From contig CM075994.1 of assembly GCA_038087875.1 (NCBI GenBank), positions 3,846,001 to 3,910,000 on the forward strand: a stretch of 64,000 nt of DNA, read 5' to 3'. Positions within the stretch are counted from its first letter, which is position 1; each line of letters opens with the position of its first letter. This document shows positions 6,629 through 62,023 of the stretch, in pieces. Below the pieces are notes generated by a model that saw only the letters and a list, made by a program, of their open reading frames with translations, was not told the DNA's origin and made no database searches. The DNA comes from Malacoraja senta (Eukaryota). The position numbers and the translations under genes are program-made.

Positions 6629-6655
6629 ATGAAAAGTTACGTGAACTAAAAGCAG
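6629..6655 (+). CDS. Micro-exon 1 (27 nt): (D)EKLRELKA
   Basis: ccttacag|ATGAAAAGTTACGTGAACTAAAAGCAG|gtaaa; paralog at 33386. Confidence 0.85.
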
Positions 6656-9600
6656 GTAAAACTATTAATCAACATTTATTTGATGATAATCAGTTTGGAA
6701 TATCTTTCAGGAACAAGAAAGGAAAGGGACTTTATTTTATTATTTTCAACATAAAGTAATAACCATGTCAATTTCCGGTGCGTCAGTCGAATTATCCTGA
6801 ATTTGCCTTGTTTCTATAGTTTGTTTCTAGTTACTGACGTGTTGCCTCAGAAATGTTTCTTCTTAGATAAATTCTCTGCCCGATCTGTTATCGGCCGGTA
6901 GCAAGCAAAGGCTCCAGGATATAACCTTTTGTGGTCTGTCTCCTGTAGTGATGGCTGTTTATGCAGTCCATGAAGATTGCTCAGCAATATTATACACTGT
7001 ACGATCTTGCTGATGTTAAACTTATGTCACTGTATTCGGATGGAGAGCCTCAGAGGAGTATCACAGTTCAATGCACACCAATATATTGCCGATGTAACTT
7101 TCAAGATGAAACTATGACGATGGGCAAAGGGTCGTTATATCTGCGATGTTGTACATTTATTTGAAGCCGATCAACTTGGATTTTGAGCAGGTTTTAATAA
7201 ATTTTAAAATGTAATCACTTGGATATGCTTCGCACCTCACAGAACGTGAAGTTCCATAGAAGCAGAATATCCGTGCCTGTCGTGGATAATTCTGAGCGGA
7301 TAATCAGCTATATTTCCCATGTTTCCTTTAATATATAGATGGAATAGAAATTTCCTTGTACAGAAATTGCATATATTTACATTTTCAAAAACAAAAAGTA
7401 ATAAATCATCTCTATGCACAGTATCGTGTGCGGACGTGGCGCCGACAGACGAGAAGCCGAAGCAAATAAGTCGAAGACAAATAACCGAATGGAATCGAGG
7501 CCGAAACTTCAAATAACCGAAAGAGCACGAAACCGAAACGCCAACTAACGGAAAGGATGGGACGCATAAATGCAAACTTACCTAACGGACTGGACACCTA
7601 AAAGCCAACGTACCGTAAAGCGGCGTCGCTTAAAGCAAACTCACCGAATGGCCGCTCTGTCGAAACGCCACATACCCGAATGGCGGCGTCGCCTACAAGC
7701 CAACGAACCGAATGCCGCTCACCAGAAAAGTCAAATAACGGGCATGACGTTGCCGGGTGCGGGAATTGTCAGCGTTTGGTGCTTGGGTTCAGATTGCCCA
7801 GTCACCTATGGCCTGTGTAGGAAAATGACCCCCCACATTCCCACCGGTGGAGACGGAGGAGAGAGAGAAGAGGGAGAATGAGAATGGGGAGAGAAAGAGA
7901 GAAGGGGAGGTAGAGGAGAGGGAGTGGGTTAGAGTGGGGAGGGGGTGAGAGGAGGAGAGAGAGAAGGGGGGGGAGAGAAGGGAGAGAGAGAGGGGGAGAA
8001 AGAGAAAAGGGGAGTGAAAGAGAAGAGGGGGGAGAAAGGGAGGGGAGAGAGAGAACGGAGAGAGAGGGAGGAGAGAGGGAGAGAGGAGGGGGAGAGCGAG
8101 GGGAGAGAGAGGATGAGAGAGAGAAGGGGGAGAGAGAAGGGAGAGAGAGTGGGGGGAGAGAGAGGGGAGAGAGAAGAGGGGTGAGAGAGGGGGAGAGAGA
8201 AGGGGAGAGAGAGAAGGGAGAGGTAGGGGGTGAGAGAGAAGAGGGGAGAGAGAAGAGGGGAGAGAGAGTGGGGAGAGAGAGGGGGAGAGAGAGAGAGGTG
8301 GAGGGAGGGAAGTGGGAGAGCGAGAAGGGAGAGAGGGGTGAGAGAGGGGGAGAAAGAGAGAAGAGGGGAGAGAGAATGGGAGACGGGTGCGTGGGGGTCA
8401 TTTTCACACACAAGCCATAGGTGACGGGACAATCTGAAGACAAGCACCAAGTAAGCGGCCGAAGGTGCGCATCCCTCGCGACTGCCCCCACTCTCCCTCG
8501 GAACGTACACTGCAAGTTCCCACGCACAAGACACCAGAATCTGTAAACTGTTTTAAATGACACAAAAAGCCAGAGTAACTCAGCGGAACAGGCAGCTTCT
8601 CTGGAGAGAAGGAATGGGTGACGTTTCGTGTCGAGACCATTCTTCAGACCGGAAGACTGTGTCTGAAGAGTCTCGACCCGAAACGCCACCCATTCCTTCT
8701 CTGCAGAGAAGCTGCCTGTCCCATTCAGTCACTCCAGCATTTTGTGTCTATCTTTGCTGTCAGTGCCAGTTTTCTCAACTTCCATAGCAGCTCTGCATAA
8801 GTGGGGGAAAGAGAGAAGGGGGGTGAGAGAGAAGGGGGGAGAAAGAGAGAGAGAGAGAGAATGGAGAGAGAGAAGGGAGAGAGAGAGGGGAGAGAGGGAG
8901 AAAAGGGGAGAGAAAGAGAGAAGGGGGGGGGAAGTAAGGAGAGAGGGGGGAAGAGCGGAGGGGGAAAGAGAGTAGGAGAGAGAGAAAGGGGACAGAGAGG
9001 GGGAGAGAGAGGGGAGGGTAGAGTGAGCAGGAGGGGAGAGTGAGAGAATAGAGAGAGAGAGAGAGAGAGAGAGAGAGAGAGAGAGAGAGAGAAGGGAGAG
9101 AGAGATGGGGAGAGAGAGAAGAGAGGAGAGAGAAGGGGAGACATGGGGGCGTGGGGGTCATTTTTCAACACAAGCCATAGATGACTGGGCAATCTAAACC
9201 CAAGCACCAAGTTGTAAGCAGCCGAAGGTGCGCATCCCTCGGGACAGACCCCGCTCTCCCACGGCCACCCTCCGCGGGCTATGGGTCGGGAGGAACGGAG
9301 GTGTGGAACACTCTTCATCCCTCCACAGTCATGTGATGGACGCTGGGGTCTGGACCAATCGGTGACAAGTGTCGCCCCCCGGCAGCCTCATGTCCGTTAT
9401 TTGACTTTTCTGGTGAGCGGCATTCGGTTCGTTAGCTTGTAGGCGACACCGCCTTTCGGGTAGGAGGCGTTTCGACAGGGCGGCCATTCGGCGAGTTTGC
9501 TTTTAGGCGACGCAGCTTTTCCGTTAGTTGGCTTTTAGGCGTCCCGCCCTTTCGGTTAATTTGCATTTAGGCGTCCCATCCTTTCGGTTTTTTGCCATTT

Positions 9601-61540: not shown

Positions 61541-62012
61541 TATCCCTGTTTGTTTTGCTGTTACATTATTCCAGCTAACAATGTGCCGTTGTCACACTGC
61601 ACACTTTCATATCTATGAATCTCCCTCTCTCCTGACATAATTCTGAAGAAGGTTATCGACCCGAAATTCGCACTCATTCCTTCTCCAAAGAGATGCTGCA
61701 TATTACGATGAGTTAGTTACTCTAGCATTATGTGTCTATATTCGGAGTAAACCAGCAGTTTCTTCCAAAAGACTGCATCCGGGTCGGTCAAGAGTGGCCA
61801 GAGTAACAAAATGGACGATCAGTCTAAACTGTAGCCTGGCTCGGTAAGATTGATTCAAAGGAGAAGGAAACCAAATGCAGAAATACAACACAAATGCTCC
61901 AATTTCACATTGTTCATGTTCTGCCAAGTCGTTTCAAAGGATTTTATTTTCAAAAATTTAATCAAAACTTAGCCATTACCTGCTGCCTAATTTTACTTAT
62001 TTTTAATTGCAG

Positions 62013-62023
62013 GTCGCTTGTAA
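62013..62023 (+). CDS. Alternative candidate terminal exon: (G/S)RL-stop
   Basis: cctaattttacttatttttaattgcag|GT CGC TTG TAA; branch-point-like CTAAT; ATTAAA at 62174-62179. Confidence 0.45.

Follow-up and report, generated by a model that had tools for sequence, protein, structure and literature searches.

A 64,000-nucleotide (nt) stretch of the genome of the cartilaginous fish Malacoraja senta (assembly GCA_038087875.1, contig CM075994.1, positions 3,846,001 to 3,910,000 of the forward strand), hereafter called the window, is likely to hold the 3′ part of a genuine gene that encodes a protein and is composed almost wholly of micro-exons. This part comprises 28 exons, most of them 27 or 36 nt long, on the + strand, and ends at a TAA stop codon at 62021-62023 (Table 1). 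The window corresponds to C18:3846001-3910000 of the 1.94-Gb assembly, and 280 kb of flanks were added to it. Positions are counted from the first nucleotide of the window, with upstream positions negative.

Detection of the micro-exons

Candidate exons were collected with a simple filter that considers AG and GT bounds, a polypyrimidine tract, a donor match, content of E, K, L, R and Q residues, and the absence of stop codons. In the window, this filter returned 17 matches on the + strand in phase 1 (among them 10 of 27 nt and 5 of 36 nt), versus 1, 4, 7, 5 and 1 in the other five combinations of strand and phase. The same excess extends into the flanks, where 80 matches in + phase 1 were obtained over 264 kb compared with 11-21 per control, and 98 over 344 kb compared with 25 and 27 in the other + phases.

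Because circularity was to be avoided, position matrices (one per size class) were trained solely outside the window (50 and 24 seeds), after which the window was scored. At 12 bits or more, 25 AG/GT-bounded segments of 27 or 36 nt are present on the + strand (16 and 9, respectively) versus a single segment on the - strand. All 25 are stop-free in phase 1, an outcome with a probability of about 6e-6 for 16 and 9 random segments of those sizes, and the micro-exons are open in phase 1 only. A chance origin of the segments is ruled out by the strand and phase controls. An earlier note on this DNA had placed such segments between AG and GT on the + strand, in multiples of three and in phase 1, and had argued that chance would not produce them; both points are borne out by the filter and the flank-trained matrix.

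Three segments are added to the matrix matches: a 24-nt exon, a candidate 15-nt exon and the start of the terminal exon. The full set thus holds 16 exons of 27 nt, nine of 36 nt, one of 24 nt, the 15-nt candidate and the terminal piece, which together give 806 nt, or 268 codons followed by the stop. Acceptors are AG in 28 of 28 cases and donors GT in 27 of 27, and the introns range from 123 to 5901 nt. The previous count of 24 exons (14 of 27 nt, nine of 36 nt and one of 24 nt; 726 nt; 242 residues) was essentially right, missing two 27-nt exons and the 15-nt candidate, while the end coordinate then given, 62023, is the final base of the stop codon. Hexamers resembling polyadenylation signals occur at 62174, 62446 and 63409.

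An ortholog in the little skate

When the 21 exons from 25542 to 62023 (the 3′ part of the 806-nt set) are joined, they align with residues 53-260 of XP_055520636.1 (termed P0013) from the little skate, Leucoraja erinacea. Identity extends to 187 of 203 residues (92%), with a single 5-residue gap, the same exon order and the same final residue before the stop. The candidate 15-nt exon is the sole AG/GT 15-mer between its adjoining exons whose phase-1 translation suits this gap. By sequence comparison, the window gene is the ortholog of XP_055520636.1, and it is therefore a true gene, for which a misnamed prediction already exists in a sister species. Consequently, the gene can be called hidden, as the earlier note had it, for this assembly only.

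The name assigned to XP_055520636.1 by the NCBI pipeline, 'CAP-Gly domain-containing linker protein 1-like', is misleading because P0013 carries no CAP-Gly domain, as judged by reading the sequence by eye (no Pfam scan of P0013 or P0011 was run). Moreover, residues 14-52 of P0013 map to the intron directly 5′ of the exon at 25542, where the window has a stop. This indicates that the P0013 model is 5′-truncated and that its N-terminus is spurious, in agreement with an AlphaFold2 model in which most of residues 10-49 score below 50 in the predicted local distance difference test (pLDDT). Both residues 1-52 of P0013 and residues 1-25 of P0008, a further family protein, abound in F, L, I, V and Y, as from a translated polypyrimidine tract, and the N-terminus of P0008 is probably translated intron as well.

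Predicted product

The 268-residue peptide contains 19% E, 17% K and 16% L, and lacks proline. Hydrophobicity along it is most strongly periodic at 3.45 residues, with a power of 2.32, and 2000 shuffles gave at most 1.66. Every 36-nt exon specifies a short amphipathic segment that is hydrophobic at positions 2, 5 and 9, every 27-nt exon specifies one central leucine and a polar end, and a 27 + 36 pair adds 21 residues, or three heptads. The AlphaFold2 model of P0013 (mean pLDDT 75, above 90 for residues ~160-250) has helices at 43-74, 83-119, 122-148 and 151-259, and its three helix breaks coincide with polar exon ends. These features uphold the proposal that the peptide is coiled-coil-like, and the product is modelled as a proline-free, E/K/L-rich α-helical rod with a few short hinges. 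We infer pairing of the helices from the heptad pattern.

Relatives in sharks and rays

Relatives were reached by way of larger exons first, using Pfam on 539 + strand open frames. An additional exon group is present at -137 to -118 kb, and just downstream of the upstream group lies an intact PRY/SPRY exon (Pfam SPRY E 1.1e-11) at -112424..-111879 (+; L028:7576-8121, C18:3733576-3734121), which ends a neighbouring gene. This exon is 65% identical to a 'zinc-binding protein A33-like' of the electric ray Narcine bancroftii, which the last micro-exons ahead of the exon, at -125001 (36 nt), -123980 (27 nt) and -114181 (30 nt), also match in order. On these sequence matches, the upstream gene is likely the ortholog of Narcine XP_069775384-390.

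The coil of the Narcine A33-like protein retrieves a Narcine 'golgin subfamily A member 6-like protein 22', which in turn retrieves a protein of the cloudy catshark, Scyliorhinus torazame, and a 945-residue S. canicula protein with coil and SPRY. By our own reading of the alignments, a nine-exon unit of the window (see below) is colinear with approximately residues 495-579 of the 945-residue catshark protein, and exon-by-exon matches to P0008 and to the catshark protein P0010 occur in order. A phmmer search with P0008 against 1.84 billion representatives yielded five proteins at E<=0.001, all of them elasmobranch and two from Leucoraja erinacea. Some members, such as the gene 112 kb upstream and catshark XP_038671249.1, end in a butyrophilin-type PRY/SPRY (B30.2) exon, and others, like the window gene, consist of coil only. 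The earlier note had offered two identities for the gene, and its undescribed micro-exon family of cartilaginous fish is closer than butyrophilin or BG membership; homologs turned up only in sharks and rays.

In pipeline models, cassettes of 9 and 6 residues distinguish isoforms of the Narcine A33-like gene and cassettes of 12, 11, 23, 8 and 8 residues those of the golgin-like gene, the latter with an I-to-V change at two junctions, as split codons would give. The pipeline names (CLIP1-like, golgin A6-like, trichohyalin-like, TAX1BP1-like and A33-like) are uninformative, and isoforms of a single gene can bear different ones. In P0008 and P0009, Pfam detected none of the domains that define golgin A6, CLIP1, TAX1BP1 and trichohyalin (such as CAP-Gly, SKICH and golgin GOLGA2L5). 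The gene is real and its architecture unusual; it has been predicted and misnamed in relatives, and full-text searches, which brought up the chicken BG paper and papers on butyrophilins, returned no description of the family or of 27/36-nt coil exons. A 'zinc-binding protein A33-like', which may or may not belong to this family, is listed in a shark skin proteomics table (PMC10707392).

Membership in known families

The earlier note suggested that the exons encode the tail of a BG- or butyrophilin-like receptor. Under this alternative, the gene would specify the cytoplasmic tail of a true transmembrane receptor of that type, with signal, immunoglobulin (Ig) and transmembrane exons located farther upstream and missed. 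A heptad coil made from small, symmetric, in-frame exons is indeed present (28 phase-1 exons with the periodicity given above, of 27/36 nt rather than the 21/24 nt of chicken BG; PMC4046983), and butyrophilins are reported in cartilaginous fish (PMC12841164). Among solved structures, the B30.2 of the family is closest to BTN3A1, BTN3A3 and BTN2A, with BTN3A1 the best match in both comparisons made (89.5 bits, E 2.4e-24, vs 72.9 for TRIM58; 67.7 bits, E 6.9e-18, vs 48.2 for TRIM21), and the match to full-length BTN2A1 and BTN3A3 extends ~50 residues into the coil before B30.2. Nor was the 5′ end of the window gene found in the flanks searched.

However, upstream exons of the required kind were looked for and none was seen. 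No V-set, Ig or other ectodomain occurs among + strand open frames of at least 75 residues from -120 to +194 kb (the stretches -140 to -120 and +194 to +204 kb were unscanned), and Pfam found no Ig domain in any of four family proteins (P0005, P0008, P0009 and P0010). No stretch of transmembrane strength occurs in seven family proteins, in which no 19-residue window reaches a Kyte-Doolittle mean of 1.6; the highest value, 1.28, falls in an N-terminus resembling translated intron. P0010 and the Narcine protein P0005 begin with hydrophilic, coil-like N-termini and have only SPRY/PRY in Pfam, while P0008 and P0009 have nothing above cut-off. Finally, the window gene itself lacks B30.2, with its stop at 62021-62023, as does its little-skate ortholog, and for this gene no B30.2 exon was listed between 3.91 and 5.71 Mb of C18 (150 of 741 and 48 of 3094 candidates scored). 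We consider a receptor tail improbable: what stands is the analogy in coil architecture and the nearness of the paralogous B30.2 to BTN3A1.

We likewise give little credence to a degenerate TRIM protein (RBCC-B30.2, 'A33-like') whose coil was enlarged by exon duplication. Two family members bear the NCBI name 'zinc-binding protein A33-like', the coil precedes B30.2 in the same order, and the B30.2 domains of TRIM21, TRIM58 and pyrin are the next-best solved matches. That name, though, is an automatic best match to B30.2 alone, the butyrophilin B30.2 is ahead by 17-20 bits, and Pfam found neither RING nor B-box in P0005, P0008, P0009 or P0010. The window gene thus behaves as a BG or butyrophilin tail does, being a modular coil of micro-exons, but it does not qualify as a member of butyrophilin/BG or of TRIM; the resemblance to butyrophilin/BG is one of analogy.

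Tandem duplication and extent of the gene

Exons of the same type occur on the + strand only; they extend from roughly -82 kb as far as the stop at +62 kb and resume from +79 kb. The gene is therefore not confined to the span 6629..62023 in which it was originally noticed; it has at least 28 exons and probably about 58 in all. Self-comparison reveals a nine-exon tandem block of ~27 kb, with exons of 27, 36, 27, 27, 36, 27, 36, 27 and 27 nt encoding 90 residues; no fewer than two and a half copies exist, at ~80% DNA identity. Unit B spans 6629-27649, unit C begins at 33386, and -5795..-1005 holds the end of unit A.

Nine exon pairs between the units have 238 of 270 nt identical, versus 2813 of 3454 in their flanks (Fisher p=0.005; 4e-5 minus one doubtful pair). 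At ~19% neutral divergence, all nine have kept every AG, every GT and an open frame. Constraint is evident in the kept splice sites and frames, not in the substitution pattern. Since every exon begins and ends in phase 1, duplication, loss or skipping of any exon would leave the reading frame intact.

The array has paralogs elsewhere on the same contig. Three consecutive exons have close, intact copies at C18 4.87 Mb (-), 5.46 Mb (-) and 6.04 Mb (+), so that paralogs are present on both strands across more than 2 Mb. Besides the B30.2 exon of the upstream gene (3.734 Mb), a second close one is located at C18 5.71 Mb (+), and contig C5 carries three that are more distant. Comparison of the exon-poor stretches at -120 to -78 kb and +150 to +200 kb for common 5′ or 3′ exons revealed repeats only.

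Apart from SPRY, Pfam matches among the 539 open frames comprise reverse transcriptase and endonuclease of long interspersed nuclear elements (LINEs), a TLR7-like leucine-rich repeat fragment, a CCCH fragment and weak sub-threshold matches. LINEs (reverse transcriptase, endonuclease and an ORF1 resembling OSK/GDSL esterases) fill exon-poor stretches, for example at +164 to +174 kb, and thereby account for gaps in the exon array; they are found in other introns as well. Purine (GA/GGA) and CA microsatellite tracts in introns (7855-9141, 18195-18964, 22736-23206 and 51358-53172) are responsible for swings in GC skew.

The intron between units B and C holds a TLR7-type fragment at 31084-32445 (+) with a 346-residue open frame (LRR_8 E 4e-35). 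It aligns to residues ~462-774 of the TLR7 ectodomain (E 2.7e-108), with TLR8 and TLR9 scoring lower, and downstream of it are an in-frame stop and a short transmembrane-like stretch. Lacking the N-terminal half, and with no TIR domain seen, the fragment is probably part of a pseudogene. Between the upstream B30.2 gene and the window gene, two CCCH zinc fingers, which we take to be of the tristetraprolin/ZFP36 type, lie in different frames and adjoin a (CA)n run (L029:1219-2161, approximately -108.8 to -107.8 kb, +). This locus looks like a frameshifted pseudogene or retrocopy.

Weight of the evidence and meaning

Several observations weigh against our assignment of the array to one genuine gene with a rod-like product. 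First, its 5′ end was not found in the flanks searched, and the exons from +79 kb may be those of another gene or may be joined to this one when the terminal exon is skipped. Second, constraint between units is modest (exons 88% identical vs 81% for intron flanks), and a crude count of 10 synonymous and 22 non-synonymous differences gives no clear departure from neutrality. Third, P0013 is an automated, imperfect and 5′-incomplete prediction that is silent on exons 5′ of 25542, and no external protein covers the six exons of unit B between 6629 and 20152, whose use is suggested by intact splice sites, open frames and paralogy. Fourth, no RNA run containing the window stretch was found for Malacoraja senta; two runs of unknown kind contain 0.86 of the window words and are probably of DNA source, and 22 runs contain 0.05-0.08. 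Lastly, the AlphaFold2 model was built on one sequence and has a predicted template modelling score of 0.30, oligomerization is something we infer, and any immune role is a guess.

Despite the missing RNA run, the modest excess of exon over intron conservation, the synonymous and non-synonymous counts, and the TLR7 fragment and LINE pieces in introns, it is highly improbable that the whole array, or unit B at the least, represents a decaying copy that is not transcribed and looks intact only because its duplication is recent, given the splice sites and frames preserved in nine duplicated pairs, the greater likeness of exons than of flanks, and a chain that from 25542 onwards matches the model of another species down to its stop. 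A genuine gene, of which the window holds the 3′ part, remains our preferred reading.

If so, the symmetric phase-1 ends would make any exon duplicable, losable or skippable with the frame kept, and a structural rod could thus grow by segmental duplication. The proteins would be cytosolic and might pair or bundle via the coil, with coil-only members joining or modulating those that bear B30.2, as TRIM and butyrophilin tails dimerize. Their role is perhaps in innate immune sensing, a guess prompted by B30.2 kinship, lineage restriction and rapid duplication. More speculatively, and in our estimate rather unlikely as a whole, sharks and rays could possess a fast-duplicating, lineage-restricted cytosolic family in which a butyrophilin-type B30.2 sensor head may or may not accompany a modular rod, its length and sequence depending on which interchangeable phase-1 micro-exons are present or spliced in, with coil-only proteins as partners or decoys of the B30.2 members. 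Such a family might be the free-standing form of the coil + B30.2 tail later found in butyrophilins and BG behind Ig and transmembrane segments, or an independent second invention.

Dozens of 27- and 36-nt exons spread over at least 100 kb are hard for gene finders and read mappers, and the best available model, from the sister species, is truncated and misnamed. The architecture described here (phase 1-1 exons, a 27/36 pair of 21 residues and a nine-exon super-unit) supplies an annotation rule for the cluster on this contig and for its relatives among other sharks and rays. It also provides comparative immunology with a testable link between butyrophilin-type B30.2 and micro-exon coils outside birds and mammals.

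Table 1. Exons of the window gene. Bits are scores of the flank-trained matrix; P0013 is Leucoraja erinacea XP_055520636.1.
Positions	Strand	Feature	Evidence
6629..6655	+	27-nt phase 1-1 exon, first of unit B	26.9 bits; paralog 33386-33412, 4 nt differences, all synonymous
9959..9994	+	36-nt exon, unit B	13.8 bits; paralog 34384-34419, 1 difference
10798..10824	+	27-nt exon, unit B	25.4 bits; paralog 34988-35014, 3 differences
12163..12189	+	27-nt exon, unit B	25.6 bits; paralog 36579-36605, 4 differences
15384..15419	+	36-nt exon, unit B	23.9 bits; paralog 39059-39094, 1 synonymous difference
20126..20152	+	27-nt exon, unit B	26.5 bits; weak paralog in unit A only, 11 differences
25542..25577	+	36-nt exon, first covered by little-skate ortholog	39.0 bits; P0013 alignment from residue 53
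27434..27460	+	27-nt exon	32.1 bits; 9/9 residues identical to P0013
27623..27649	+	27-nt exon, last of unit B	25.2 bits; P0013 alignment; motif also in catshark P0010
33386..33412	+	27-nt exon, first of unit C	24.5 bits; P0013 alignment; paralogs at C18 4.87, 5.46 and 6.04 Mb
34384..34419	+	36-nt exon	15.9 bits; P0013 alignment
34988..35014	+	27-nt exon	23.5 bits; P0013 alignment
36579..36605	+	27-nt exon	26.5 bits; P0013 alignment
39059..39094	+	36-nt exon	24.6 bits; 12/12 residues identical to P0013
41316..41342	+	27-nt exon	26.8 bits; P0013 alignment
41641..41676	+	36-nt exon	15.6 bits; 12/12 residues identical to P0013
42409..42423	+	Candidate 15-nt exon	Fits the single 5-residue P0013 gap, 4/5 residues alike
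44955..44990	+	36-nt exon	32.5 bits; P0013 alignment
45674..45700	+	27-nt exon	24.8 bits; P0013 alignment
48197..48232	+	36-nt exon	41.7 bits; P0013 alignment
48576..48602	+	27-nt exon	16.3 bits; P0013 alignment
48726..48752	+	27-nt exon	25.8 bits; P0013 alignment
54654..54680	+	27-nt exon	16.7 bits; P0013 alignment
55229..55264	+	36-nt exon	32.8 bits; 13/13 residues identical to P0013
56477..56503	+	27-nt exon	25.4 bits; P0013 alignment
57072..57098	+	27-nt exon, last base A not G	17.7 bits; P0013 alignment
59597..59620	+	24-nt exon	AG/GT bounded; P0013 alignment
62013..62023	+	Terminal exon start: three codons and TAA stop	Phase 1; last three residues as in P0013, then stop

Comparison with known systems

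Genes for non-fibrillar collagens (for example types XIII, XXIII and XXV) are likewise rich in exons of 27 and 36 nt whose boundaries interrupt a codon after the first base, separated by very large introns. A collagen reading of the array is ruled out because phases other than 1 are closed and the peptide has no Gly-X-Y triplets; furthermore, the split codon is mostly G|AN (Glu/Asp) rather than the G|GN of collagens. Class IV TRIM proteins (such as zinc-binding protein A33 and TRIM21) share with the family a coil followed by B30.2, a cytosolic setting and multigene organization, but no RING or B-box was found in the family proteins scanned, and the TRIM coil is not known to be built from 27/36-nt exon arrays.

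The tails of BTN3A1 and BTN2A1 have the same order of coil and then PRY/SPRY, and BTN3A1 is, as described, the best solved match to the B30.2 of the family. In contrast, butyrophilins have only a few heptad repeats and an IgV-IgC-transmembrane front (PMC4046983, PMC12841164), and the window gene has no B30.2. Chicken BG genes, butyrophilin relatives without B30.2, come near in another respect. Their coiled coil is encoded by exons of 21 nt, sometimes 24 nt, which number 13-36 per gene and are preceded by signal, IgV and transmembrane exons (PMC4046983). Common to BG and the window gene are the run of tiny symmetric exons, its variable number between paralogs, and the expansion and contraction of a multigene family. 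Each BG exon, however, corresponds to one heptad, whereas the window gene, for which no Ig or transmembrane exon was found in the frames scanned, distributes exons of 27 and 36 nt over tens of kilobases.

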